From contig DASPWT010000207.1 in the NCBI GenBank assembly GCA_035637655.1, positions 1,347 through 65,346 on the forward strand: a stretch of DNA of 64,000 nt. Reading direction: 5' to 3'. The notes beneath the pieces are model-generated. The model saw only the letters and a list, made by a program, of their open reading frames with translations. It was not told where the DNA came from and did not search any database. This DNA is from Burkholderiales bacterium. GTDB taxonomy: Bacteria; Pseudomonadota; Gammaproteobacteria; Burkholderiales; SG8-39. Positions 4,346 to 57,166 of this stretch are shown here, piece after piece (positions within the stretch are counted from its first letter, which is position 1; each line of letters starts with the position of its first letter). Both the position numbers and the translations under genes were made by a program.

Positions 4346-5059
4346 TCAACATATCATCCAGAAAGCAAGGGTCAACCGGGGAAAGTCAAAAAAAGAGTTC
4401 TTCGGATGATAGGCAGCGTGGAAATACTCGGAAGGAAAGATCAGCAGCCGTCCCGGAACCATGTCGATCACCCCGGCCATTTCCCAGAACTCGTCGGGAT
4501 TCTCCAACCAGTAGTCCCGTCCATCCTCTACGATCCGGGGATTCTGCCGCGTCGCCTGCGCGTACGATTCGTCCACGATGAGCGAGTTTGATTTCCTGAA
4601 CCGGAAGAATGCCGTACCGCCCGAGCACTCACCTGGACTGTTCAGATAGACGATACAGGTGAACGATCGCTTGACGTCACCTGATGTGTCGTAGTGCGGA
4701 AAAGCGAAGTCGCCGCGTTTCTCGTGGATCTGCATGAACCAGTTGACGTCGACGGCCGGATCCTGGGGCCGCGTTGCGGTCGAGTACACGGTCTGAATGG
4801 CCTGCTGCGCAACGGCAAGCATGCGGTTTGGAAACCAGACCGGGAAGCGAAGCCGGCAATCGTAGTAATCGACAAAATTTCTCCCCCCTTCCACATACTT
4901 CCAGTTCGCCGCGGGAGCGGTTCCCACGACCGACCGTGCTTCGGCAGGGGACTTGAGGAAACCGTCGATGACGACCGCGGGAATCGAGGCCGGAGCCGCG
5001 TTCTTTATGACAAGACTCGTATTGACGTCGAACAGCTCGTTGAAGAGGAATGGCTTCAT
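4346..5059 (-). CDS. hypothetical Fe(II)/2-oxoglutarate dioxygenase-like protein (DUF6445-like)
   Basis: 237 aa with a candidate HxD...H facial triad (FPHYDTSG ... EYFHAAY). Visibly AT-richer than the flanking sequence. The family assignment is from memory of the motifs only. Confidence 0.55.
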   Translation of the reverse strand: MKPFLFNELFDVNTSLVIKNAAPASIPAVVIDGFLKSPAEARSVVGTAPAANWKYVEGGRNFVDYYDCRLRFPVWFPNRMLAVAQQAIQTVYSTATRPQDPAVDVNWFMQIHEKRGDFAFPHYDTSGDVKRSFTCIVYLNSPGECSGGTAFFRFRKSNSLIVDESYAQATRQNPRIVEDGRDYWLENPDEFWEMAGVIDMVPGRLLIFPSEYFHAAYHPKNSFFDFPRLTLAFWMIC

Positions 5060-30076: not shown

Positions 30077-31354
30077 ATGAAGCTTCTGGTCATCGGTTCC
30101 GGCGGCAGGGAACACGCGATCGCGTGGCGCCTGGCGCAAAGCCCGCGAGTGCAAAAAATCTTCATCGCCCCGGGCAATGGCGGCACCGCGCGCGAGGCCG
30201 GCCTGGAGAACGTGGCGATCTCGGGGATCGACAAGCTGGCCGAATTTGCGCTGGCCGAAAATATTCACCTCACCGTGGTGGGACCCGAGGCACCGCTTGC
30301 CGACGGTATCGTCGATCTGTTCCGTTCCAGGGGGCTGCGGATCCTCGGTCCGACTCAGGCGTGCGCCCGGCTGGAGAGCTCCAAGCAGTTCGCCAAGGAA
30401 TTCATGACCCGGTACAGGATCCCCACGGCGGAATTTTCGAGCTTCGACGCAGCTCACGCCGCGCACGCCTACATCGAGGCGCACGGCACGCCCGTCGTCG
30501 TGAAGGCCGACGGCCTCGCCGCGGGAAAGGGCGTGATCGTCGCCATGAGCGCGGACGAAGCCCATCGTGCAATCGAGCAATTTCTCGTCGAGCGTACGAT
30601 GGGCGCCGCGGGCAACCGCGTCGTGATCGAAGAATTCCTGGAAGGCGAAGAGGCGAGCTTCATCGTGTTGGCGGACGGCGAGCACGTGCTCCCGCTTGCG
30701 ACCAGCCAGGACCACAAGCGTCTCAGGGACGGCGACCGGGGGCCCAACACCGGCGGCATGGGCGCGTATTCTCCGGCGCCGGTCGTGACCCCCGAGCTGC
30801 ACGCGCGAGTGGTGCGCGAAATCATCCAGCCCGTGCTCGCAGGAATGACCGAGGAAGGCCACCGCTACACCGGGTTCCTCTACGCCGGCCTCATGATCGA
30901 CAGCACCGGCAACCCCCGGGTGTTGGAATTCAACTGCCGCCTCGGCGATCCTGAAACGCAGCCGATTCTGCTGCGTTTGAAAAGCGACCTGTTCGAGTTA
31001 ATCGAGAGCGCCATGGAGGGCAGGCTCGACCACGTCAAGGCGGAATGGGACCGCCGCGCCGCGCTGGGGGTGGTTCTCGCGGCCTCGGGTTATCCGGACG
31101 CCCCGGAAAAGGGCCACGTCGTAACGGGACTACCGGCGGCGCGAGAAGACTTCCGGGTGTTTCACTCGGGCACCGCGCTCAAAGACGGCGCCATCGTCAC
31201 CAACGGCGGGCGCGTGCTGTGCGTGACTGCTCTTGGGGATTCTATCAAGATGGCGCAGCGGCGCGCCTACGAAGTGGCGGAGGGAATCCGTTTTGACGGC
31301 ATGCAGTACCGGCGCGACATCGGGCACCGCGCCGTTGCCACACGAAGGCTTTGA
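30077..31354 (+). CDS. purD: phosphoribosylamine--glycine ligase
   Basis: MKLLVIGSGGREHAIAWRL N-terminus and an ATP-grasp core. Confidence 0.95.
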   Translation: MKLLVIGSGGREHAIAWRLAQSPRVQKIFIAPGNGGTAREAGLENVAISGIDKLAEFALAENIHLTVVGPEAPLADGIVDLFRSRGLRILGPTQACARLESSKQFAKEFMTRYRIPTAEFSSFDAAHAAHAYIEAHGTPVVVKADGLAAGKGVIVAMSADEAHRAIEQFLVERTMGAAGNRVVIEEFLEGEEASFIVLADGEHVLPLATSQDHKRLRDGDRGPNTGGMGAYSPAPVVTPELHARVVREIIQPVLAGMTEEGHRYTGFLYAGLMIDSTGNPRVLEFNCRLGDPETQPILLRLKSDLFELIESAMEGRLDHVKAEWDRRAALGVVLAASGYPDAPEKGHVVTGLPAAREDFRVFHSGTALKDGAIVTNGGRVLCVTALGDSIKMAQRRAYEVAEGIRFDGMQYRRDIGHRAVATRRL

Positions 31355-45744: not shown

Positions 45745-46047
45745 TCACTGCGCCATGCGCGGCGTGAGGCCTGCGGCGTGCATCGCGATGAAAAAAACGA
45801 CCCGAGCTATCGCGACCCAGAAGGCAGCGATCGGCGCGAGTGCCAGAGGCGGCATGATCGAGGGCGTAATGAACGCGACCGGCTTCATCAGCCAGTCGGT
45901 CAGACGCCGGAACCAGCGGTAGATGTAGTTGGGTGAGTCGGGCGGCAAGAAGATCGCGAACATGAACCGCCCTATCAGCGTCCAGAACAGCACCGAGAAT
46001 GCGTAGTTCGGGAGATGGAAGTACCACCAGATGTCCTGACCCTGCAT
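45745..46047 (-). CDS. YggT-like small membrane protein
   Basis: 100 aa with two hydrophobic segments around YRWFRRLTDWLMKPVAFITP, which resembles the YggT loop motif. The assignment is weak. Confidence 0.5.
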   Translation of the reverse strand: MQGQDIWWYFHLPNYAFSVLFWTLIGRFMFAIFLPPDSPNYIYRWFRRLTDWLMKPVAFITPSIMPPLALAPIAAFWVAIARVVFFIAMHAAGLTPRMAQ

Positions 46048-46777: not shown

Positions 46778-47070
46778 AACGTCACCTTGTAGCTGCCGTC
46801 CGTCTGCTTATCGGCGATGCACTGGTAGAGTCCCTTCTTGCCGCCGAGTTCGTAGGGAATGTTGACGCGGATACCTGAGTCGCCGGTCGAGGCCTGGATG
46901 TTCGATTTCTCCTTGCTGGCGAACTCAGCCTTGCCGTAAACCGGGTCCTTCTTGGCGCCCGCCAGGCAGACGTCGTAGGCCGCCTGTTCGTCCTTGCCCC
47001 CGGCGCAGGCGGCGAGCGCTAGAACTAACGCGGCCGTCACGGCGATACGCAGAGCAGTTGTCATGTGCAT
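46774..47070 (-). CDS. small lipoprotein, unknown function
   Basis: Lipobox LALAAC after a signal peptide. About 75-aa mature Lys/Gly-rich domain with a second Cys pair. Confidence 0.65.
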   Translation of the reverse strand: MHMTTALRIAVTAALVLALAACAGGKDEQAAYDVCLAGAKKDPVYGKAEFASKEKSNIQASTGDSGIRVNIPYELGGKKGLYQCIADKQTDGSYKVTF

Positions 47071-47090
47071 GGGGACGCCATTATAGACGG

Positions 47091-47123
47091 CTGGAAAAAG
47101 AAAAGGCCCGCCCCGGGCGGGCC
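47091..47123 (-). terminator. rho-independent terminator of the symporter operon
   Basis: On the minus strand, GGCCCGCC-GGG-GGCGGGCC stem-loop followed by TTTTCTTTTT, 30 nt after the symporter stop. Confidence 0.8.
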
Positions 47124-47152
47124 TTTCGCTAGCGGGGCGTGGATCGCGGCGT

Positions 47153-48943
47153 CTAGTCGTGCGCCTGGCCGGCGACCCAGTGCAGCTCGCCCTTGGGCAC
47201 GCGGATCGTGTCCACGAACTCCTGCATTTCCTTCGACGGCGCCGCGGTCATCAGGCTCACGATCCAGGTGACCAGGAAGGCGAGCGGCAGGCCGAACAGG
47301 GCGCTCGAGATGTTGCGGATGCCGAACCACTCGGCCATGCCGAAGTAGCGCGTGCCGACGAGGTAATACGCGCACACCCCGAAGCCGATGACCATGCCGG
47401 CGATGGCGCCCGCCGCCGTGGTGCGTTTCCACCAGATCCCGAGCACCAGCGGCGCGAACAGTCCCGCCGCGGCGAGCGAGAACGCCCAGGCCACCATCTG
47501 GATGATGCCCGCGGGACGGGTTCCGGCGACCGCCGCGGCGACGATGGCGACGACGACGAGCAGCACCCGCGCGACGACCAGGCGGCGCATCGTGGACGCG
47601 TGCGGATCGATCATCTTGTAGTAGATGTCGTGGCTGAGCGCGTTGGCGATCGCGAGTAGCAGCCCATCCGCGGTGGACAGCGCCGCCGCCAGGCCGCCTG
47701 CGGCGACCAGCCCCGAAATCACGTACGGCAGGCCCGCGATCTCCGGCATCGACAGGACGATGATGTCCTGGTTGATGATGAATTCGCTCAGCTGTAGGAT
47801 GCCGTCGCCGTTCGCGTCCTTGATCGTCAGCAGGCCGCCGACCTGGGACCAGTTCTGCACCCACGCCGGAAGCGCGTTGATGTTCTGGCCGATGACGTTG
47901 GTATAGACCTCTAGCTTGGCGAACGCCGCGTAAGCCGGCGCGGTGAAATAGAGCAGGAAGATGAAAAAGATGCTCCAGCCTACCGAAGTGCGTGCGTCCT
48001 TGACGTTCGGCGTCGTGAAGTAGCGCATCAGGATGTGCGGCAGCGACGCGGTGCCGATCATGAGCGTCAGGGTGAGCGCCCAGAAATTGTTGAACTCGAC
48101 CCAGCTGAACTGGCCCTTGGCGTCGACATAGGCTGCGGCGTGCGGCTTGAGGATGCCGAGCTTCTGCTCGAGCTGGCTGATCTGGTCGAGCACCTGCCCG
48201 TAGGCAAGCTCCGGGATCGGATTCCCGAAAAGCTTCGTGGAGAGCCAGACTACCGGAATCAGGTAAGCGATGATCAGAATGATGTATTGCGCGACCTGGG
48301 TCCAGGTCACCGCGCGCATGCCGCCGAGCATCGAGCACACCAGGATGCCGAGGAGGCCGACGAAGATCGCCACCTCGAACGGGATGTCGAGGAAGCGCGA
48401 GGTGATGATGCCGATGCCGAAGCACTGGGCGACGATGTAGGTGAAGGAGGCGCAGAACAGCACGATCACGCCGCAGACGCGCGCGGTGTTGCCCTCGTAG
48501 CGCACGCCGAGGAAGTCGGGCACCGTGAACTGGCCGAACTTGCGCAGATACGGCGCGAGGAGTACGCCGACGAGCACGTAGCCGCCGGTCCAGCCGAGCA
48601 CATAGCCGAGGCCGCCGTAGCCGGCGAGGTACAGGCCGCCGGCCATCGAGATGAACGAGGCGGCGCTCATCCAGTCGGCGCCGGTCGCCATGCCGTTGAA
48701 GAACGGCGGCACCACGCGCCCGGCCACGTAGTACTCGGAAATCTCCGAAGTGCGGGAGATGACCCCGATGTAGGCGTACACGCCGATGGTCAGGAACACG
48801 AAGCAGTAACCGATGACCTTGTTCGGCACCCCCATCTGCTCCAGGATCGCGAGGATGATGACGAAGCCGATGAACCCGCCGGCGTAAACGCCGTAGATCC
48901 TGCCGAGGTTGTCGACGAATCTCTTGCTGGTTTGGTTGGCCAT
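47153..48943 (-). CDS. sodium:solute symporter, large subunit (VC_2705/ActP-like SSS subfamily)
   Basis: 596 aa, about 13-14 TM. EYYVAGR and GMATGADWMSAASFISMAG are typical of the SSS family. Immediately preceded by a DUF4212 gene, the diagnostic pairing of this subfamily. Confidence 0.85.
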   Translation of the reverse strand: MANQTSKRFVDNLGRIYGVYAGGFIGFVIILAILEQMGVPNKVIGYCFVFLTIGVYAYIGVISRTSEISEYYVAGRVVPPFFNGMATGADWMSAASFISMAGGLYLAGYGGLGYVLGWTGGYVLVGVLLAPYLRKFGQFTVPDFLGVRYEGNTARVCGVIVLFCASFTYIVAQCFGIGIITSRFLDIPFEVAIFVGLLGILVCSMLGGMRAVTWTQVAQYIILIIAYLIPVVWLSTKLFGNPIPELAYGQVLDQISQLEQKLGILKPHAAAYVDAKGQFSWVEFNNFWALTLTLMIGTASLPHILMRYFTTPNVKDARTSVGWSIFFIFLLYFTAPAYAAFAKLEVYTNVIGQNINALPAWVQNWSQVGGLLTIKDANGDGILQLSEFIINQDIIVLSMPEIAGLPYVISGLVAAGGLAAALSTADGLLLAIANALSHDIYYKMIDPHASTMRRLVVARVLLVVVAIVAAAVAGTRPAGIIQMVAWAFSLAAAGLFAPLVLGIWWKRTTAAGAIAGMVIGFGVCAYYLVGTRYFGMAEWFGIRNISSALFGLPLAFLVTWIVSLMTAAPSKEMQEFVDTIRVPKGELHWVAGQAHD

Positions 48944-48958
48944 GTTGGTCGCTCCCGG

Positions 48959-49222
48959 TCAGTCTTCGGCGACGCCGAATTCTTCGTCGATCTTGTTCTG
49001 CGCGCTCGCGTTCCAGAAGCACACCACCACGTAGAAGATGAGCGAGCCCTGCGCCGACATGTAGAAGCCGAGCGGGAAGCCGAAGATCTTGATCTGGTTC
49101 AACTGCACGGCGAACGCGGGGATGATGAAGCTGAAGAGCACCCACAGAGCCATGATGATCCACATCAGCCGTGATGTTTTTTTCCAGTACGCATCGCGTT
49201 GCGCGGGCGTCAGTGCGGCCAT
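48959..49222 (-). CDS. DUF4212 putative solute:sodium symporter small subunit
   Basis: 87 aa from ATG 49222, with RBS GGAGGAGGGG upstream. AYWKKTSRLMWIIMALWVLFSF and a second TM helix. Track ORF start 49273 trimmed. Confidence 0.8.
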   Translation of the reverse strand: MAALTPAQRDAYWKKTSRLMWIIMALWVLFSFIIPAFAVQLNQIKIFGFPLGFYMSAQGSLIFYVVVCFWNASAQNKIDEEFGVAED

Positions 49223-49336
49223 GTTCCCCTCCTCCATGTTTTGTCGAGAGCGTTCGGACGAGCTCCCGTACAATCGCTGAGATGCTAGCCGCGCAACCCA
49301 GCCGCATCCATTAGGGAAAACCCTAGGTTTCGACGT

Positions 49337-49966
49337 CTACTCCGATTGCTGCATTGCAAACTGAACCAGTTCAGCGACCGAGGTCACACCCATCTTCTCC
49401 ATCACCTTGGCGCGATGAAATTCGACGGTCTTCATGCTGATGTGAAGTTCGGCTGCGATGATCTTGTTCGGCTTGCCTTCGATGACGCGCTGCAACACCT
49501 CGTGCTCGCGTTCGGTCAGGGTCGCAAGGCGGCCGGCGATGCGCGATTGCCGCGCGCGCTTGTCGCGGAGTTCGGCGTCGCGCTGGAAAGCATTCGCGAT
49601 GATCGCGAGGACTTCGCGATGGCTGAATGGCTTTTGGATGAAATCGACTGCGCCGCCCTTGAGTGCGCTCACCGCGGCCGGCACGTCGCCGTGCCCTGTG
49701 ACGAAGACGATCGGGATCTCGATGTCCCGGCGATTCAGGTACTCCTGCAGCTCTAGGCCGCTCATCCCGGGCAGCTTGAGATCCAGCACGAGACAACCGG
49801 CGCTTCCGTTCCGATAGGACTCGATGAACTCCGCCGCCGTGGCGAAGGTCCTCACGGCGATGCCGTTCGATTCCATGAGCCAGCGCCAAAGCGTGCGAAT
49901 TGACTCGTCGTCGTCGACCACATACGCGATGGGAGGCTGATCGGGATGCATGTCGTTCATCGGCAT
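49337..49966 (-). CDS. FixJ/NarL(LuxR)-family response regulator (CrbR/ErdR-like)
   Basis: Receiver domain (IAYVVDDDESIR, LVLDLKLPGMSG, FIQKPF) plus a GerE HTH (LTEREHEVLQRVIEGKPNKIIAAELHISMKTVEFHR). ATG 49966 preceded by GAGGAGGA. Confidence 0.85.
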   Translation of the reverse strand: MPMNDMHPDQPPIAYVVDDDESIRTLWRWLMESNGIAVRTFATAAEFIESYRNGSAGCLVLDLKLPGMSGLELQEYLNRRDIEIPIVFVTGHGDVPAAVSALKGGAVDFIQKPFSHREVLAIIANAFQRDAELRDKRARQSRIAGRLATLTEREHEVLQRVIEGKPNKIIAAELHISMKTVEFHRAKVMEKMGVTSVAELVQFAMQQSE

Positions 49967-50002
49967 CGGATCCTCCTCGCGACCCAGACGCACGAGCCGC
50001 AC

Positions 50003-50025
50003 CGAGCGGTCAGTGTAGCAAAGCC
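50003..50025 (-). repeat. copy 1 of a 23-nt perfect repeat (promoter/leader core) upstream of the FixJ-like regulator gene
   Basis: CGAGCGGTCAGTGTAGCAAAGCC on the plus strand, identical to 57123..57145. On the minus strand it reads GGCTTTGCTACACTGACCGCTCG and contains an extended -10 (TGC-TACACT). Confidence 0.9.
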
Positions 50026-50147
50026 GCGATGTCGATGCAGTTCGTCTGCGACGAGGCACGAGCGCAGGCTGTCCGGATGGGTCACGGTGCAAACCCTCTA
50101 CGGACGCGGCTACGTTTCGAGCACGCCGAAGCGTAGGCCGGGCGCCC

Positions 50148-51569
50148 CTAAGGCGAGAGCTGGTAGTCGGCCGCGATACGAGCCTGGATAGCGCGCGCCT
50201 GCTTGAGCGCGACCACCAGCACGCGCTGGTCGAATTCGTGCAGCGCGTAAGGATCGATGCGGTTGTCCGGCGCGAGACCCTGCTGCAGGCACTCGGCCTG
50301 GCGGCGCAGGCGCAGTCCCTGGATGTGGTAGTACGCCGTGATCCACGCCTCCGCCTCCCGCTGCGGCACCTTGAGCGCCGGGGCGGCCGCGCGCAGCCGC
50401 CGTTCGGTATTCACTTCGTCGATGCCGTGCGCCAGCGAGAGAATCCGGGCCGCGTCTACAAAGAGACTGGCGCCGTTCAGCTTGACATCTATCCTGCCGT
50501 CATCGCCGGTGATGAGCCGTCCCAGCAACCCGAGTGGCGGGCGGTTCTTTAAGGCGTTCTGCGCCATCTGATGGAGGAACCGCCGATTACGGGGCGCATG
50601 CCGCATCAGCCAGCGACGCAGCTCCCTGGCGAGCGTCAGATCACCCTGCAGCGGCCGCAGATCGAAGAAGATGGCTCCGTGAAGCAGTGCTTCCGGGCTG
50701 CCGGTGTCGATCCAGCGCTCGAATTCGCGTCGCCATTCGTCAAGGCTCAAGACCCATTGCGGATTCCCCGCCATGACATCGCCGGGGCACAGGCGGTAGC
50801 CCGCCCGGTCGAGCGCCCAATTGATGCGCCGCGCGACTGGCAAGAGCGCCGAGCGCACCGAGTCCAAGCTTTCCCCGGGTTCCACGGCGAACATGATGCC
50901 GTTGTCCTGGTCGGTGAACAGCGTCTGCTCGGATCGGCCTTCGCTGCCCATGAGGATCCAGCAGTAGCGCACCGCCACGTCGCGGAACTCCAGCTCGACG
51001 ATGCGCTGGGTGAGGAGGTCATTGAGAGAGGCGATGAAGGCGGTGAGCGCGCCCACGGCCACCCCTTGGGCGAGCATCCTGCGCCCAAGGTCGCTGATGT
51101 CCCGGCCGAACTGCTCGATGGCCGGCAGGTCCTCGGCGCCGTGGATGGCCTCCGACAGGTGCCGGATGCCGGTGCTGTGCAGGCCAAAAAGGTCACGTTC
51201 CGAGATGATGCCGGCGAGCCGGGCGCCGTCGACCAGCACGATGTGACGCACGCCGTGGCGGATCATGGCGAGCGCCGCGCCATAGGCGGTCGCGTCCAGC
51301 GGGAGCGTGACCAGGCGCGACGTCATGACACGCGCAATTGGAGCATCGAGCGCGCCTGGCTCCAGCACCACGCGGTCCACCACGTCGCGCAGGGTGAGGA
51401 TGCCGAGCGGCACGCGGTCCGCGTCGACCACGATCATCGAGCCGATGCCGAGCTCCCGCATCCGGGCGAGCGCCTGCGCCACCTTCTCGTCCGGAGCGCA
51501 GGCGACCGGCGCCCGCCGCAGCAGCTTCGCTAGCGGCGGGTCGATCGCTTCAGTAACGCAGTCGCGCAT
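50148..51569 (-). CDS. CBS-pair / DUF294 putative nucleotidyltransferase (GlnD/GlnE-like NTase fold plus DUF294_C)
   Basis: 473 aa with two CBS repeats at the N-terminus. NTase motif GSEGRSEQTLFTDQDN (GS...DxD) at about aa 208-222. 20-nt overlap with the upstream exonuclease gene. Confidence 0.8.
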   Translation of the reverse strand: MRDCVTEAIDPPLAKLLRRAPVACAPDEKVAQALARMRELGIGSMIVVDADRVPLGILTLRDVVDRVVLEPGALDAPIARVMTSRLVTLPLDATAYGAALAMIRHGVRHIVLVDGARLAGIISERDLFGLHSTGIRHLSEAIHGAEDLPAIEQFGRDISDLGRRMLAQGVAVGALTAFIASLNDLLTQRIVELEFRDVAVRYCWILMGSEGRSEQTLFTDQDNGIMFAVEPGESLDSVRSALLPVARRINWALDRAGYRLCPGDVMAGNPQWVLSLDEWRREFERWIDTGSPEALLHGAIFFDLRPLQGDLTLARELRRWLMRHAPRNRRFLHQMAQNALKNRPPLGLLGRLITGDDGRIDVKLNGASLFVDAARILSLAHGIDEVNTERRLRAAAPALKVPQREAEAWITAYYHIQGLRLRRQAECLQQGLAPDNRIDPYALHEFDQRVLVVALKQARAIQARIAADYQLSP

Positions 51570-53700
51570 AGTAAGTGCGCTCGCACGCGTCGCGCGCCCG
51601 CCCGAGCGTCTCGATTCCCCGCTCGGACAGCAAGGGAATCATCCTCAGGAACACTTCGCCCGTCATGACAGCGTCGCCCACGGCAGTATGCCGGCCCGCC
51701 GTGTTCACCCCGAAGCGGCCGGCAATCGTCTCGAGCTGGTGCGACGCCAGATTCTCATGCAGCAGCGCAGACAGGAGCAGCGTGTCGAGGACCGGATGGG
51801 CAAAGCGCACGCCGAGGGCTTCCTCCTTGAGCCGGAGGAAGCGCATGTCGAACGCCGCGTTGTGGCCGACCAATACGGTGTCCTCGCAGAACTTGTGGAA
51901 CGCCGGCAGCACCCTCTCGATGGTGGGTCGCCCCTGCAGCATCTCGGGTCGGATGCCGTGGATTTTCATCGAAGCCGGTTGCAGGGAGCGGCGCGGGTCG
52001 ACCAGCTGATCGAACACCTCGCCCGAGAGAAGCCGCCCGTTGACGATGCGCACTGCGCCGATGGCGATGATCTCATCGCCCGCGGACGGCTCGAGCCCTG
52101 TCGTCTCGGTGTCGAACACTGTGTAGGTGAGATCCTTGAGCAGCCGGTCGTCGAGCTCGCGCGTCTGGCCCGGCTGGTGAAAGAGGTCGAAGTCATAGTA
52201 CTCGGGCCGGCTCGGGCGCGCGGGCACGCTCGCCGCCGTTTTTTCCGGCTCGGCAAGCGGCAGGAGCAGCCGGAACGAGGACCGGCTCGAGGCCGGGTCG
52301 AACTCGTACCAGGCTTCGCCGTGGTGGCGGTTCAGCACTTCGCGGAAGGTGAGGGCGCTTGATTCGCCGCCGGTCACCAGCGCCGAGCCGTCCCAGGACT
52401 GAACGGTGGACGACGACAGGCGCGCGCCGGTCCAGGTGAGGCTGAATTGCGCATGGCGTCCGGCCGCCCCCACGGCGAAGGCAACTTCTCGGACCTGGCA
52501 CTCGTACTTCAGCCGATGGGCGAGGAAACAGACCGCCTGCACCATGATGAAGCTGTCCGCGTTCACCCACAGGGAAGCATCGATCTCCCCGGTGCTGGTG
52601 GGCAGCCCGACACGCCCGGATATTCGACGCCGCATCACGTCGATCAGGTCGATCGCCCGGATCTGCTCCGGCAACCACTCGCCCATCACATGCTCCGAAT
52701 ACTCGCGCGCGGTGCGCTGAAGCTCTCCCGTCAGGCGATCGGCCTCCTCGCTGATGATGCCCGTGAACTGGCGGCGGCGCGCGACGTCCATTTCCGGATA
52801 GTTCACCAGGTTTTCGACCGCGGCACGCACGCTTGCGAGCGCGGCGCGCGCGTCTTCGGTGTATCGCTGCAGGAGCCGGTCGCGCCGTTCGGCGCGCGTC
52901 ACGGCTTCGCCGATGTCCTCCAAGAGCAGCACGAAACCGGCAAGCTCGCCGCCCGGCGCCGTCCCGTGCCCCGCCACAGGCGCCAGCTGCGCGCGCACCA
53001 GCTGCCCGGTCCGGATCGCCGCCATGAACACCACCACCGGCCAGGTCTCGCCCTGCGCAAAACGTTGGCGAAGCTGCTCGAGCGCATGGGACATCAGGTC
53101 CTGGTCAAGCAGTGTGTAGAGCGAGCGACCCAACCCGATGTAGCTCGAGGCCGGGCCGCCCGCCTCGTCCTCCAATCCGGAAAACACCTGCCGCGCGCGC
53201 TCGTTGTACAGCAGGATTCGGCCTTCCAAGTTACACACGACCACACTTTGCGACAGTTCCGACATGAGCGCGGCAAGCCGGATTCTCTCCTGGTCGAAAT
53301 CGAGCCGCGCTTGGCTGATGCGCGCCTCCACGTCCCTCAGTACTCCTTCGTGCTGCGCGGCGAGCACGTTGATCGCGCCAGACAGCTCGCGCCATTCCGC
53401 CGGACCCTCGGCCTCGATGCGGTAGCTGGGGTTGCCGCCCGCGATCAGGCGGGTGGATTCGGTGAGCCGGCGCGCGGAGGCGACGTAGGTCCGGATGAGC
53501 CAGTTGGCGAGGAAGCCGCTGGCGCCGCAGGCGATGGCGACCAGGAGGAGGAGCGTTGCCTGACTTCCCGACAGCAGGCGCCGGAACGTCTCGCGGTCTT
53601 GCAGGCCGAACGACGCATCCAGCATGAACAGCAGCGCCGCTCCTGCCCCCAGGAGCAGTCCGAAACATACGGCCCAGGCGGCGGCTAGGCGGAGCTTCAT
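51550..53700 (-). CDS. membrane-anchored HAMP/PAS/degenerate histidine-kinase-like protein fused to a DEDDh 3'-5' exonuclease (DnaQ/RNase T family)
   Basis: 716 aa with 2 TM (aa 5-27 and 48-70), a HAMP-like linker and a PAS-like region (VVVCNLEGRILLYNERARQVF). A DHp-like helix carries YTEDARAAL where kinases have SHELRTPL. Exonuclease motifs are FDTETTG, GHNAAFDMRFL and HTAVGD. The ATG abuts the receiver stop (TAGATG). Confidence 0.8.
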   Translation of the reverse strand: MKLRLAAAWAVCFGLLLGAGAALLFMLDASFGLQDRETFRRLLSGSQATLLLLVAIACGASGFLANWLIRTYVASARRLTESTRLIAGGNPSYRIEAEGPAEWRELSGAINVLAAQHEGVLRDVEARISQARLDFDQERIRLAALMSELSQSVVVCNLEGRILLYNERARQVFSGLEDEAGGPASSYIGLGRSLYTLLDQDLMSHALEQLRQRFAQGETWPVVVFMAAIRTGQLVRAQLAPVAGHGTAPGGELAGFVLLLEDIGEAVTRAERRDRLLQRYTEDARAALASVRAAVENLVNYPEMDVARRRQFTGIISEEADRLTGELQRTAREYSEHVMGEWLPEQIRAIDLIDVMRRRISGRVGLPTSTGEIDASLWVNADSFIMVQAVCFLAHRLKYECQVREVAFAVGAAGRHAQFSLTWTGARLSSSTVQSWDGSALVTGGESSALTFREVLNRHHGEAWYEFDPASSRSSFRLLLPLAEPEKTAASVPARPSRPEYYDFDLFHQPGQTRELDDRLLKDLTYTVFDTETTGLEPSAGDEIIAIGAVRIVNGRLLSGEVFDQLVDPRRSLQPASMKIHGIRPEMLQGRPTIERVLPAFHKFCEDTVLVGHNAAFDMRFLRLKEEALGVRFAHPVLDTLLLSALLHENLASHQLETIAGRFGVNTAGRHTAVGDAVMTGEVFLRMIPLLSERGIETLGRARDACERTYYARLRY

Positions 53701-54069
53701 CTACGGACCCAGCAGCCGCTTGACTGCCTCAAGCAGCTCCCGGGTGGCGAACGGCTTGGTGATATAGGCGTCTGCGCCCAGCGCGAGGCCCTTGGCGACC
53801 TCGGTTTCGCGGCCCTTCGCGGTCAGCATGATGATCTTCACCGGCTTGAGCTCAGGCGATTCGCGGATCACCTGGCAGACTTCGAAGCCGTTCTTGAGCG
53901 GAAGCATGATGTCCAGCAGCAGCAGGTGTGGCCGGAATTCCCGCGCCACGCTCAGCGCGTCGTCGCCGTTGGCCACTGTCCGGATCTCGTATCCGCTCTG
54001 CTCCATGAGAAACTCCAGCGAGACAGCGATGTTGGGCTCGTCGTCCGCAATCAGCACCCGCTGTTTCAC
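53701..54069 (-). CDS. stand-alone CheY-like receiver protein
   Basis: [19 protein letters not shown] and ITKPF motifs. GTG 54069 with a GAGGG RBS, 1 nt after the kinase stop. Track start 54111 trimmed. Confidence 0.85.
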
Positions 54070-54070
54070 G

Positions 54071-56842
54071 TCACGCCCTCGCGGCAGCCGCGGCCGCTCT
54101 CGAATCCCCAACGGCGCTGATGGGCAAGGTGAAGGAGAACGATGCGCCTTCCCCGGGCCCGCTCTCCACCCAAAGGCGCCCTCCGAAATGGCCGATGATT
54201 TCGCGGCAGATAGGCAAGCCCAAGCCGGTGCCCTGCGGTTTCTCGGTCAGCGTATCGCCCACCTGCCGGAACTTCTCGAAGATGATCTGCTGGTCCTCGG
54301 GGCCGATGCCGATGCCGTTATCTATTACATCGACCCGCAACGCTTCCGCTTCACGGCTCAGCCGGATTTCCACCCGTCCATGCTCCTTGTCGCAGAACTT
54401 CGCCGCGTTTGACAGCAAGTTAAGCATGACTTGCACGAGCCGATCGCGATCCGCGAACAGCGTGGGAACCTCGGGCTCGAGTTCGGCCATGACCCGGATG
54501 CCGCGCTCCTTGAACAGCTGGCTGGTGGCCGTGATCGACTCCTCAATGATCTCCTTGAGTTCCACTTCCGTGTTGTGCCATTCGGCGCTACCCGATTCGA
54601 TCTTGGCGAGGTCGAGCACCTGGTTGATGAGGCGCGTGAGCCGCTCGGACTCCTTCACGATGATGCTGAGGAATTTGGTGCGCTCGGCCTCGTCGAGGCG
54701 GGGATTGTCATTGAGGATCTCCGAGAACGCGCGGATCGAAGTGAGCGGCGTGCGCAGCTCGTGCGTCACGGTGGAGATGAAGTCGTCTTTGAGGCGGTCG
54801 AGCTCCTGCAGCCGCTGGTTGGCACCGCGCAGCTCGTTGGTTGCCGCCTCGAGTTCCTGTGATTTCTGCTCCAGCTGCCGGCTATAAGCGAGAACCTGCG
54901 AGGCCTCGTCGATGATGCTCATTACCTCGTCGATGTCCAGGGGCTCCTCCTCGACGACCGAGGCGACCATGACGCGGGCCGAAGCGCTGCCGATGGCGCC
55001 GGCGAGGAGCGATTCTGCGTGGTGCACCAGATTGGCGTCGGCCGAGAGCGCCTCGGCCGATCGCACACCGCGGCTGTGGGCGTAGGCGGCAAACGCCTCG
55101 TGCGCGCGCTCCGGACCGAGAAAACGGCCCACCAGCAGCAGCAAGTCGTTGACCGAGGCGCTGCCGCGCCAGAAGCGCGAACCGGGAGACGCCAGCGGGT
55201 GCTTGAGAGCATCGACGAATACGGTGGCTTGTCCGTGCTCGGCCGCATTGGGCCCCTTGATCAGCGATACGCCGACGTAGCAGCCGATGTTGACGAGCAT
55301 GCTCCAGAAGAGGCAATGTGTGATGTCGTCCAACCCCTGGAGTCCGAGCAGGTGCTGCGGCTTGAGGAGATCAGTGCCGAACAGCCCGTGAGAAAGAAAG
55401 GTGATCGGCAGCCAGCCCGACTTGGCGAAAGAGGGCAGCAGCAGCGTATAAGTCCAGACCAAGAAGCCCGCTGCCAGGCCGCAGAACGCGGCAGTGCGCG
55501 TACCCCCCTTCCAGAAGATTCCGCCGATGATGGCTGGGGCAAACTGTGCCACCGCCGAGAACGAGATCAGCCCAATGGAAACCAGCGCATAGGCTTCCCC
55601 GGCCAGATAGAAGTAGAGATAGCCCAGCACCAGGATCAGCACGATCGCCCCGCGGCGGATGCCGAGCAGCAGCCCGGAGAGATCGCGCCGCTCAGTCAGG
55701 CGAAGCGCCTTCGAGCGCAGCAGCACCGGCATCACCAGGTCGTTGCACACCATGGTGGAGAGCGCGATGGTTTCGACGATCACCATGCCGGTCGCAGCCG
55801 AAAGTCCGCCGATGAAGGCGAACAGCGCGAGCCACGGCTGCCGTTCCGCGATCGGCAGCGTCAGCACGAAGGTGTCGGCATCCACTGTGCCGTCCGGAAA
55901 GTGCAGTAGCCCGCCGAAAGTGATCGGCAGCACGAATACATTGATCGCAAGCAAGTAGAGCGGGAACAGCCAGATCGCCTTGGTCAGGTGACGCTCGTCG
56001 ACGTTCTCCACGACCGTCACCTGGAACTGGCGCGGCAGGAACATGATGGCGGCCATCGAGAGAAAGGTGAGCGAGGCCCAGGTCGCGTAGCCGCCGCTCT
56101 CGCTTCCCAGGGTCAGCAGGGCGCTCGACCGGGGCGTCTGGCGGGCGCGGTCGAAGATGTCGCCGAAACCGTCGTAGAGCCAGAACGTGACGAACAGCCC
56201 CACCGCGATGAAGGCGAGAAGCTTCACCAGCGACTCGAACGCAATGGCCGCGACCAGGCCTTCGTGGCGCTCGGTGGCGTCGAGGTGGCGGGTGCCGAAC
56301 AGGATAGTGAAAGCCGCGAGCAACATCGCGATGTAGAACGTGTTGTCGCCCAGGAACAGGGGCGCGCCCTGGTTTTCGGGCGTTGCCAACGCGGGATACT
56401 GGAGGACGATCAGGAAGGTGCCGGATATCGCCTTCAGTTGCAGCGCGATGTAGGGGATGATCCCGACCACGGCAATGATCGTCACCAGGCCGCCGAGCAT
56501 TTGGCTCTTGCCGTAGCGCGAGGCGATAAAGTCGGCGATGGAGGTAATGCGGTTGTGCTTGCTGATGCGGATGATCTTCAGCATCACGTACCACCACAGC
56601 GCCGCCATCAGCGTTGGCCCGAGGTAGATCGGCAGGAAGCCGATGCCGCTCGTCGCCGCGCGCCCTACGCTGCCGTAAAAAGTCCAGGACGTGCAGTAGA
56701 CCGCGAGCGACAGTGCATAGATGTAGGGGTTGGCGATGATGCTGCGGCCCGCGTCGGCGCGCTTGTCGCCGTAATAGGCGATCGCGAACAGCAGCCCCAC
56801 GTAGGCGAAGGAGGCGATGACGATGACGGGGGCGGTGAGCAT
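54071..56842 (-). CDS. sensor histidine kinase with N-terminal sodium:solute-symporter (SLC5/SSF) domain (CbrA/CrbS/MxtR-like), no receiver domain
   Basis: 923 aa. About 500 aa of SSF-type TM helices, a STAC-like linker, a coiled coil, the H-box [14 protein letters not shown] and HATPase boxes ([21 protein letters not shown]). The protein ends right after the ATPase domain. Confidence 0.9.
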
Positions 56843-56881
56843 GGGCCAAGGCGTCAGGCCGCCGGCACGTCCTATCGACCC

Positions 56882-57082
56882 TCAGTCATTGCGCTTTTCG
56901 ACTACCAGCGCCATGAGCCCGATCAGCAGCGCCCATACCGCGAACACATAGACGTAGAGCACCGGGATGCCCAGCACCTGGCCGGGGCCGGCGAACAGAT
57001 TGAGAAGCGGGTAGTTGAACAGCAGGAAACCCAGCAGAAACAGCGCGGCCAGCCGCTGCCCCTTGATGCTTGGCCGGATCAT
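56882..57082 (-). CDS. small two-TM membrane peptide upstream of the SSF kinase (CbrX/DUF3311-like position)
   Basis: 66 aa from ATG 57082, with RBS GAGGAGGAGGG upstream. MIRPSIKGQRLAALFLLGFLLFNYPLL and a second TM helix. Confidence 0.6.
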   Translation of the reverse strand: MIRPSIKGQRLAALFLLGFLLFNYPLLNLFAGPGQVLGIPVLYVYVFAVWALLIGLMALVVEKRND

Positions 57083-57122
57083 GGACCCTCCTCCTCTCAA
57101 TGCCCGGGCGAACGGGCTGCAA

Positions 57123-57145
57123 CGAGCGGTCAGTGTAGCAAAGCC
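57123..57145 (-). repeat. copy 2 of the 23-nt perfect repeat (promoter/leader core) upstream of the small-peptide/kinase operon
   Basis: CGAGCGGTCAGTGTAGCAAAGCC, identical to 50003..50025. The flanks also align down to the RBS. Confidence 0.9.
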
Positions 57146-57166
57146 CCTGCTGCTGCCGTAGCGCTC

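Follow-up and report, generated by a model that had tools for sequence, protein, structure and literature searches.

Why should a nuclease and a nucleotidyltransferase (NTase) be encoded within the operon of a transporter-like sensor kinase? This question is raised by a cluster of eight minus-strand genes at 47091-57148 of a 64,000-nucleotide (nt) stretch of DNA (~64% G+C) from a Burkholderiales bacterium (GTDB lineage SG8-39; GenBank assembly GCA_035637655.1, contig DASPWT010000207.1, positions 1,347 to 65,346), the whole of which is hereafter called the window. The cluster encodes a small peptide, a sensor histidine kinase (HK), a stand-alone receiver, a fusion of an HK-like core with a DEDDh exonuclease, a CBS-DUF294 NTase, a FixJ-type response regulator and the two subunits of a sodium/solute symporter. 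SLC5/STAC 'transceptor' two-component systems govern the uptake and activation of short monocarboxylates. We lean towards reading the locus as a betaproteobacterial form of these systems (CbrA, CrbS/MxtR, RpuS) with a two-output working, in which the exonuclease and the NTase, here called the pair, would form a branch of their own.

The pair has published counterparts. CrbS/CrbR (MxtR/ErdR) control acs and actP, and their regulon includes a gene for a cyclic nucleotide monophosphate (cNMP)-CBS-DUF294 protein (Pflu5625, PP_0354, PA3233) with a downstream RNase_T exonuclease gene (PP_0353, PA3232). This DUF294/exonuclease operon is the strongest direct MxtR/ErdR target, PA3232-PA3235 and PP_0353/PP_0354 being the direct targets reported; the link of a DUF294 protein and a DnaQ-like nuclease to actP/acs, which a preliminary description of the window had mentioned, is thus on record. 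Deletion of the Pseudomonas DUF294/exonuclease genes left growth on acetate unaffected and impaired growth on pyruvate and, moderately, on propionate; the PP_0353 deletion resembles an actP-I deletion on pyruvate, and it has been speculated that the pair acts in mRNA degradation or symporter expression. According to fitness data, DUF4212 symporters transport D-alanine or lactate, and they are cofit in Shewanella and P. stutzeri with a neighbour labelled COG2905 (RNase T domain protein), which the authors speculate to be needed for symporter expression. The connection of DUF294 and exonuclease to SLC5/STAC kinases and monocarboxylate symporters is therefore known. The pseudokinase fusion and its coupling to a receiver appear to be new, as we found no description of either in the full-text literature, subscription journals aside.

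Results

We analysed the fusion protein (51550-53700, minus strand; 716 amino acids (aa); RNase_T, E=4.5e-37) with an AlphaFold2 (AF2) model built from a 70-sequence alignment, with a mean predicted local distance difference test score (pLDDT) of 78.5. The model divides the protein into a first transmembrane segment (TM1, residues 2-30), TM2 and HAMP (47-88), a long coiled helix (101-147), PAS (152-262), a helical hairpin like the dimerization and histidine phosphotransfer (DHp) domain of kinases (264-341), an alpha/beta domain like their catalytic and ATP-binding (CA) domain (345-482), a disordered linker (486-520) and the DEDDh exonuclease (526-708). HAMP and PAS, which gave weak sequence matches, were confirmed by the model and by a fold search, in which Foldseek matched the first two-thirds of the protein to WalK (E=4e-20), VicK, LOV-HK chimeras, ThkA and NifL, and the C-terminus to the proofreading domains of PolC and epsilon, with a root-mean-square deviation of ~2 Å for epsilon. 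A profile-sequence search likewise retrieved the VicK-like 4i5s (E=4e-12 over 253-492) and the HK853 DHp, with PolC/epsilon exonucleases nearest to the exonuclease domain.

The kinase core of the fusion is catalytically dead by its residues, with the overall HK fold kept. The segment aligned to the H-box of the neighbouring kinase reads TEDARAALASVRA and has Glu at the position of the His; this position is E, Q or R in a 16-sequence family alignment, in which no invariant His occurs within residues 264-341. When the two window sequences are aligned, the N-box Asn and the G1 Asp are also lost (CFLAHRLKY against NLLSNAAKF and WTGARL against DNGIGI). The dead DHp/CA core is still conserved, with 66% and 64% mean column identity in the alignments examined, and its DHp is 38% identical over 52 residues to the DHp of the neighbouring kinase. 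At the C-terminus, D530, E532, D618, H671 and D676 are invariant in 70 sequences, so that the exonuclease domain is, as judged by its catalytic residues, an intact DEDDh. The pseudo-kinase::DEDDh fusion proposed in the preliminary description is supported at each of these positions.

The linker carries the motif RPE[YF]YDFDLF (residues 498-507, window 52192-52221), in which Tyr502 never varies; residues 486-503 have pLDDT below 50. The motif may be a docking, autoinhibitory or modification site. It doubled as a retrieval pattern for the 80 loci compared below, which therefore do not count as evidence of how broadly it is kept.

Members of the family are annotated in the source records as 'exonuclease domain-containing protein' or as 'DNA polymerase III subunit epsilon'. 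A Pol III epsilon-like proofreading or repair exonuclease in an incidental position would agree with such names ('DNA polymerase-3 subunit epsilon' also occurs) and with proofreading domains as the best sequence matches. We consider this highly improbable, because all equivalog models for Pol III epsilon/PolC score far below their cut-offs (107-151 bits against 196-1043), the fusion is membrane-anchored behind a complete sensor module, dozens of species retain its linkage to kinase, receiver, acs and symporters, and sister lineages have no fusion gene at this very locus. A defence-system reading was rejected, PADLOC giving a generic DEDDh match only and nothing for DUF294.

The stand-alone receiver (53701-54069, minus strand; 122 aa; Response_reg, E=6e-28) starts with GTG 1 nt past the kinase stop (TGA-C-GTG), and its own stop abuts the ATG of the fusion gene with 0 nt between them (TAGATG). 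For synteny, related loci were retrieved with the peptide patterns RPE[YF]YDFD and YT[VA]FDTET, and the eight window proteins were mapped onto the 80 best species loci. As a result, the receiver gene was found directly upstream of the fusion gene at 67 of the 80, and at 49 of these 67 a possible fusion start falls between -40 and +30 nt relative to the receiver stop, a 4-nt overlap being commonest. This mostly coupled stop/start adjacency agrees with the earlier proposal that the pair is wired to the kinase module.

Indeed, the receiver changes where the fusion is absent. Its identity to the window falls to 54-59% in the sister loci without the fusion, L090, L091 and L092 (the L091 contig ends within the receiver gene), while the kinase stays 87-88% identical to that of the window in L090 and L092. 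Where relatives carry the cassette and their kinase is about as similar, the receiver remains 85-88% identical, and the OmpR-type relative L089 has a kinase 87% and a receiver 86% identical to the window. In a receiver tree, two no-fusion receivers stand on long branches, sister to the window group. The preliminary description had argued that the pair is no passenger, and the divergence of the receiver to 54-58% in two no-fusion contigs, with the kinase still at 87-88%, bears this out. We thus link the receiver to the fusion because of their conserved adjacency with coupled stop and start codons, the conservation of a catalytically useless DHp/CA core, the resemblance of this DHp to that of the neighbouring kinase, and the sharp divergence of the receiver where the fusion is absent.

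Nevertheless, the pair might work without the receiver. Nuclease and NTase could be co-expressed post-transcriptional effectors that trim or tail, at the 3' end, a small RNA or the transcripts of transporter, acs or central-metabolism genes, with the HAMP-PAS of the fusion sensing a separate cue and the receiver, as a phosphate sink or split-off domain, never touching the fusion. An RNA or DNA 3' end would be the default nuclease substrate, the exonuclease domain being nearest to the nucleic-acid 3'-5' exonucleases PolC, epsilon and DinG. The Pseudomonas pair is moreover a transcriptional target in a separate regulon operon, outside the kinase operon, and the published speculation favours mRNA degradation or symporter expression; the persistence of the receiver where the fusion is absent, and the Accumulibacter fusion that occurs without kinase and receiver, point the same way. 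However, a dead DHp/CA core that is still conserved is hard to explain unless it docks a partner, the receiver-fusion stop/start coupling is widespread, the receiver sequence shifts sharply upon fusion loss, and DUF294 has its fold matches among protein AMPylators rather than among enzymes that tail RNA. We regard these co-expressed effectors as a serious, though clearly less probable, alternative to the receiver-fusion link.

The NTase (50148-51569, minus strand; 473 aa), whose gene overlaps that of the fusion by 20 nt, has its CBS pair, DUF294 and DUF294_C all above the Pfam gathering cut-offs. A PDB sequence search with this protein returned CBS matches only. An AF2 model from 57 sequences (pLDDT 88.5; predicted template modelling score 0.85) was matched by Foldseek to the N-terminal domain of GlnE (1v4a, E=1.4e-7 over 404 columns), to the GlnE C-terminal domain (3k7d) and to the Legionella Rab AMPylase DrrA (6yx5, target template modelling score 0.67). 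GlnE and DrrA are the best non-CBS matches among the 50 listed, which include none of the cGAS/CD-NTase or GGDEF type.

The known substrates of GlnE/GlnD/DrrA-type enzymes are protein tyrosines. Both GlnE domains, and DrrA as well, can be superposed on the model of DUF294 plus DUF294_C, and DUF294 likewise bears the G-[SG]...D-x-D motif of the GlnE/GlnD/DrrA/SidM enzymes, here as an invariant G208-S209...D220-x-D222. It differs from them in sequence, with only 11-14% identity, in the CBS pair that would gate it, and in having no built-in removal domain, against the second NTase domain of GlnE and the HD domain of GlnD. DUF294 thus resembles protein tyrosine-nucleotidylylating enzymes in its modelled fold, and a corresponding activity is suggested. 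The preliminary description had offered two mechanisms, namely a nucleotide-based signal made and degraded by the pair, or a target that is nucleotidylylated; the second fits the GlnE/DrrA-like fold better, and the first fits less well.

In the first of these mechanisms, DUF294 would synthesise a nucleotide second messenger, for instance a linear or cyclic oligonucleotide, which the DEDDh domain would break down, the kinase gating this small-molecule loop. Cyclic-oligonucleotide synthases are found among the Pol-beta-fold NTases, and Orn is an example of a DEDDh enzyme that degrades short oligonucleotides; in addition, DUF294 and the exonuclease co-occur tightly with both catalytic motifs intact. 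We nevertheless find such a messenger improbable, since the non-CBS fold matches are the protein-modifying GlnE and DrrA, with the same helical substrate-binding domain, and the 50 listed matches hold no messenger synthase of the types named above. The cluster also contains no messenger receptor or effector domain, and PADLOC is silent on DUF294.

A bolder reading of the second mechanism would make the receiver, the fusion and DUF294 together a self-contained, non-transcriptional output cassette of transporter-like kinases, in which the phosphorylated receiver switches the membrane-anchored DEDDh enzyme by docking on its dead DHp, DUF294 reversibly nucleotidylylates a protein tyrosine, and the DEDDh domain, as the missing de-nucleotidylylase, removes the Tyr-linked nucleoside monophosphate (NMP). 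The exonuclease may cleave the Tyr-O-P-5'-NMP phosphodiester as if releasing a terminal 5'-NMP, and the invariant Tyr502 of the fusion linker, the symporter or Acs may be the tyrosine target. A tyrosine-AMPylase-like partner and an invariant linker tyrosine allow for this idea, which we hold to be unlikely.

The sensor kinase (54071-56842, minus strand; 923 aa) contains HisKA at 685-751 (E=1e-19) and HATPase_c at 798-908 (E=2e-29) by Pfam, and its H-box, THELRTPL, has the His; by these motifs, its DHp and CA are predicted to be catalytically competent. It had been described as an SSF-domain kinase. Pfam SSF gave no match to the N-terminus even at E<=10, but its SLC5-STAC identity was recovered by profile: a 15-orthologue profile of the N-terminus aligns residues 7-629 of the kinase with chain residues 10-590 of PDB 10ED at E=1.3e-92, an entry in which the SLC5-STAC domains of P. 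putida CbrX-CbrA were solved by cryo-electron microscopy. The alignment extends through the STAC part, up to chain residue 590, and the STAC family is absent from the Pfam matches of the kinase. Because of this match to the CbrA structure, we assign the protein to the SLC5/STAC 'transceptor' kinases. Between its N-terminus and the window symporter, BLASTP gave a short local match only. The kinase is 60-74% identical across 56 species and is not a hybrid, its receiver being encoded by the separate 122-aa gene; no PAS domain was detected in it, only HisKA and HATPase_c following the STAC region.

The peptide gene (56882-57082, minus strand; 66 aa; a gene call in the source assembly) precedes the kinase gene by a 39-nt gap. 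The peptide has no Pfam match and shows two apparent hydrophobic segments, read as two transmembrane helices; it was detected at 58 of the 80 loci, with common sequence motifs. In Pseudomonas, the peptide CbrX forms a helical hairpin that binds CbrA at its SLC5 domain. Homology to CbrX was not supported, since a 17-peptide profile found no PDB chain at E<=10, and the 66-aa peptide may be called a positional analogue of CbrX, by position, size and two hydrophobic segments only.

We then surveyed the distribution of the fusion. The search gave at least 1273 homologous clusters, not all of them shown to be full-length, with the 120 best listed nearly all full-length, and relatives of the fusion occur in at least 587 species-level genomes. 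They belong mostly to Rhodocyclales and Burkholderiales (Accumulibacter, Dechloromonas, Zoogloea, Thauera, Azoarcus and Aromatoleum), and also to Competibacter. The kinase is present at 61 of the 80 loci, the symporter at 50 and DUF4212 at 23. DUF294 is found at 47, after the fusion at 36 and before the peptide gene at 12, one locus having it in both places; L086 has a DUF294 protein with a cNMP-binding domain, which the window's form lacks. The acs gene lies immediately upstream of the peptide gene at ~40 of the 80, and likewise in close relatives. Most of the 80 loci have no DNA-binding regulator nearby: an OmpR-type DNA-binding domain occurs at three and a GerE domain at none.

Annotated contigs gave three gene orders. 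The first runs acs-peptide-kinase-receiver-fusion-DUF294-(OmpR, opposite strand)-DUF4212-symporter, and the second yjcH-actP-cNMP/CBS/DUF294-peptide-kinase-receiver-fusion. The third begins with a pyruvate-dehydrogenase-like E1/E2 set and continues with peptide-kinase-receiver-fusion-DUF294, and its contig has no linked transporter or DNA-binding regulator that belongs to the cluster. The conserved unit is accordingly peptide-kinase-receiver-fusion, with or without DUF294, and not the span from the kinase to FixJ.

Several loci vary this arrangement. Two uncultured betaproteobacteria (L014, L075) carry tandem copies of the kinase/receiver/fusion/DUF294 module within 12 kb. Loci of the Dechloromonas, Azonexus and Sulfuritalea type (L046, L047, L057-L059, L065, L066, L069, L071, L072, L074, L076, L079, L080) have two consecutive DUF294 matches after the fusion, one partial and one near full length; at several of them, the DUF4212 tblastn match comes after the symporter match, not before it. 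The flanks of the fusion in L033, L034, L043, L045 and L068 are without kinase, receiver and DUF294. In L033 (L033:9755-11962; Candidatus Accumulibacter phosphatis NC_013194.1), the fusion gene adjoins a phosphofructokinase gene, near an AbiEii-like gene.

The preliminary description had the pair embedded between the kinase and its regulator. This position is peculiar to the lineage of the window, no FixJ/GerE regulator occurring at the 80 other loci. The FixJ-type protein (receiver plus GerE by Pfam; 49337-49966, minus strand; 209 aa) matches the NCBIfam FixJ model at E=1.7e-63, below the model cut-off, and its 120 best homologous clusters are 86-94% identical to it; this is unusually high conservation, as among the 120 best matches identity drops to ~50% for the fusion and ~60% for DUF294. 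Relatives with a fusion 67-79% identical have an opposite-strand OmpR-type regulator between DUF294 and DUF4212. In sister lineages, the same locus (ubiD-ompA-groESL ... yggT-hemA-prfA) holds peptide-kinase-receiver-FixJ-DUF4212-symporter, with no nuclease or NTase gene between receiver and FixJ in L090 and L092; in L090 and L091, the kinase is 88%, FixJ 90-92% and the symporter 89-94% identical to the window, against only 55-59% for the receiver. Since sister lineages run the kinase-FixJ-symporter axis without it, the DUF294/exonuclease pair is an optional accessory branch and is not required to connect the kinase with the regulator.

The 181-nt spacer between the DUF294 and FixJ-type genes does contain a second copy of the promoter/leader, as described before. 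Copy 2 (49983-50025, minus strand, 5' of the FixJ-type gene) is 86% identical over 43 nt to copy 1 (57103-57145, minus strand, 5' of the peptide gene), with the exact 23-nt core GGCTTTGCTACACTGACCGCTCG; these are the only two matches of the repeat in the window, where 0 are expected by chance. The core contains an extended -10-like TGCTACACT, which together with the conservation suggests a promoter role; in a scan for the sigma-70 consensus, the repeated element was not picked up. The core is conserved 5' of the peptide gene in L088, L090 and L092, where the sequence further upstream differs, and copy 2 is nearer to the peptide leader of these three loci than to the window's own peptide leader, copy 2 being the better preserved of the two. 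It is joined to the fixJ start at a CCGATG microhomology. In L088, an 87% identical relative, fixJ lies ~14 nt past DUF294 without a second leader copy.

The leaders of these relatives (L088:6565-6620, L090:~4550-4610, L092:~4455-4513) also hold a short open reading frame (ORF), namely MRILVVGDDGLSHFPEAS, MRVRVAEDDGLPYFPEGS or MRVLITEDDGLPCFWEGP, which resembles the N-terminus of an OmpR-family response regulator (MRVLITEDDGL...) and ends at or overlaps the start codon of the peptide gene. This ORF, which the window's own peptide leader has lost, may be a remnant or may encode a leader peptide with translational coupling.

On the plus strand of the same spacer (50000-50116), tblastn found a match to residues 188-218 of the L089 OmpR-type regulator, at an E-value of 0.03 that is weak alone. 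This segment reads VTVQTLYGRGYV where L089 reads VVRTLYGRGYV, and it sits exactly where the intact OmpR-type gene ends in relatives. We take it, on sequence grounds, as evidence for regulator replacement at the locus; the second promoter copy, beside the relic of the displaced OmpR-type gene, resembles a scar left by recombination, and the FixJ regulator with its duplicated leader is lineage-specific. In the simplest reading, with its order reconstructed, an ancestral cassette-plus-OmpR arrangement would have come first; fixJ with a copied promoter would have displaced the OmpR-type gene, the window retaining the scar; and spacer loss (L088) or fusion-DUF294 loss (L090, L092) would have followed later, after which the receiver diverged.

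The symporter genes end the cluster. The small subunit, DUF4212 (48959-49222, minus strand; 87 aa; a gene call with an alternative start at 49237), matches PF13937 at E=3e-27 and TIGR03647 with 90.5 bits (cut-off 26), and the VC_2705-family sodium/solute symporter large subunit (47153-48943, minus strand; 596 aa) matches TIGR03648 with 741.8 bits (cut-off 321) and SSF at E=2e-53. The two had been described as a DUF4212/VC_2705-type pair, and indeed they are adjacent, 15 nt apart, and both far above the cut-offs. Relative to other TIGR03647/TIGR03648 systems, the regulator in the window lineage is of the FixJ type rather than the OmpR type. The 114-nt gap between the FixJ-type and DUF4212 genes contains the palindrome CTAGGGTTTTCCCTAA (49311-49326, minus strand), 23 nt upstream of a TAGCAT -10-like hexamer (49282-49287) that lies 5' of DUF4212. 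The palindrome occurs once in the window and is kept in L090 together with the TAGCAT; it is a candidate FixJ-type site, with binding putative. Two OmpR-type relatives have a conserved box GATTCAGGATTTTGTAAG(G/C)TTTTTT 5' of DUF4212 (L089:7285-7320, L085:10830-10865), also a candidate binding site, in whose place the palindrome stands in the FixJ lineages.

The layout of the eight tight same-strand genes, with all junctions in the order first described and the terminator, was reproduced by an ORF scan, by the gene calls of the source assembly and by direct reading of the junctions. The intrinsic terminator at the cluster end (47101-47127, minus strand) has a 12-bp stem, of which 8 pairs are G-C, and a T tract after it. 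Pfam and NCBIfam profiles support HisKA, HATPase_c, Response_reg (twice), RNase_T, CBS (x2), DUF294, DUF294_C, GerE and DUF4212, as had been predicted from the sequence. Upstream of the cluster lies groES-groEL with its own terminator, and downstream are yggT-like genes followed by hemA-prfA-prmC. No acs gene was found within the 64-kb window, as stated before. An Rfam scan of the cluster and its leaders gave nothing near the gathering score. A 748-aa ORF (47061-49307, minus strand), rich in Arg, Gly and Pro and lying in another frame over the symporter and DUF4212 genes, was dismissed as a high-GC artefact and not a gene.

Discussion

The gene order, the domain architectures, the lost kinase residues and the kept nuclease and NTase residues, the synteny with its coupled junctions, the presence or absence of the cassette and the exchange of regulators are direct results, whereas phosphotransfer, receiver-pseudokinase docking, the substrate class and the target of nuclease and NTase belong to a working that we infer for the locus. 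The kinase and its CbrX-like two-helix peptide would read substrate occupancy or flux via the transporter-like domain, the kinase would autophosphorylate, and it would feed two outputs. In the first output, a DNA-binding regulator, an evolutionarily interchangeable component, would switch on the promoter of the DUF4212/VC_2705 symporter; in the window this would be the FixJ-type regulator, probably acting at the CTAGGGTTTTCCCTAA palindrome. In the second output, the phosphorylated receiver would dock on the histidine-less DHp of the membrane-anchored fusion and set the exonuclease activity, in the manner of DivK~P and DivL. The fusion and the CBS-gated, GlnE/DrrA-like DUF294 would thus form an optional non-transcriptional branch that tunes the function of the symporter or of Acs.

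In Caulobacter, the pseudokinase DivL reads the phosphorylated single-domain receiver DivK, which provides a precedent for 'reverse' signalling to an HK-like scaffold. As in that system, a histidine-less HK-like DHp/CA module stands beside a stand-alone receiver in the window. DivL has Tyr in place of the His and controls the kinase CckA, whereas the window scaffold has E, Q or R across its family and is fused to an exonuclease, and the analogy may be taken as mechanistic only.

CbrX-CbrA of Pseudomonas has a non-hybrid kinase with a small two-helix peptide gene immediately upstream, as in the window. CbrA differs in being a histidine sensor that contains PAS and has the NtrC-type CbrB and small RNAs as its outputs. 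CbrAB is not known to have an associated receiver, exonuclease or DUF294.

With CrbS/CrbR, the window shares the SLC5/STAC sensor kinase, a regulator of the LuxR/FixJ class, putative control of a monocarboxylate symporter, linkage to acs (in relatives of the window), and a CBS-DUF294 NTase with an RNase_T-type exonuclease in one functional unit. However, the hybrid kinase CrbS contains PAS and has its receiver fused to it, whereas the window has a separate receiver gene and no detected PAS. According to the papers, the Pseudomonas NTase carries an extra cNMP-binding domain, which the window DUF294 is without; the Pseudomonas exonuclease is described by its RNase_T match only, and both proteins are compared here by published description. 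In the window, the exonuclease is fused to a 2 TM-HAMP-PAS-pseudokinase, and its gene and that of the NTase are part of the kinase operon. A loose pattern for the ACTU motif of CrbR has no match in the cluster (47091-57148); elsewhere in the window it occurs twice (31292-31308, 46022-46038), which is no more than chance would give. With a non-hybrid kinase and no ACTU site in the cluster, the locus does not fit the CrbS/CrbR subtype, which the preliminary description had cited among known systems.

Several observations weigh against the two-output working. The receiver is present also in lineages without the fusion and thus has a fusion-independent role, perhaps as a sink for phosphate or as a receiver that was split off from a CrbS-like hybrid kinase. 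Its divergence rests on essentially one loss event. The Accumulibacter fusion gene stands alone, without kinase or receiver nearby, and Competibacter-type loci have only a divergent ActP-like symporter gene beside the fusion, again with no kinase or receiver nearby. An adjacent DUF294 is missing at 33 of the 80 loci at the thresholds used, the window itself is without acs, and the promoter and FixJ-site assignments come from sequence alone.

Few targets of the SLC5/STAC kinases for acetate, pyruvate and propionate use in Pseudomonas and Vibrio are controlled as strongly as the DUF294/exonuclease pair, whose function three genetic studies have failed to reveal. In betaproteobacteria, its form offers a sharper handle, with a dead kinase scaffold on the nuclease and translational coupling to a dedicated receiver. 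Furthermore, the presence or absence of the cassette at one locus in near-identical backgrounds provides natural knockouts, which make the function of the pair testable. If removal of a Tyr-linked NMP by the DEDDh domain were true, it would represent both a new class of two-component output and a new activity of the DnaQ fold. If the relay from receiver to pseudokinase is true, it would be a rare two-component output that acts via a nuclease rather than via transcription, in a system that occurs in wastewater organisms whose acetate uptake is of practical importance, including Accumulibacter, Competibacter, Dechloromonas, Zoogloea and Thauera.

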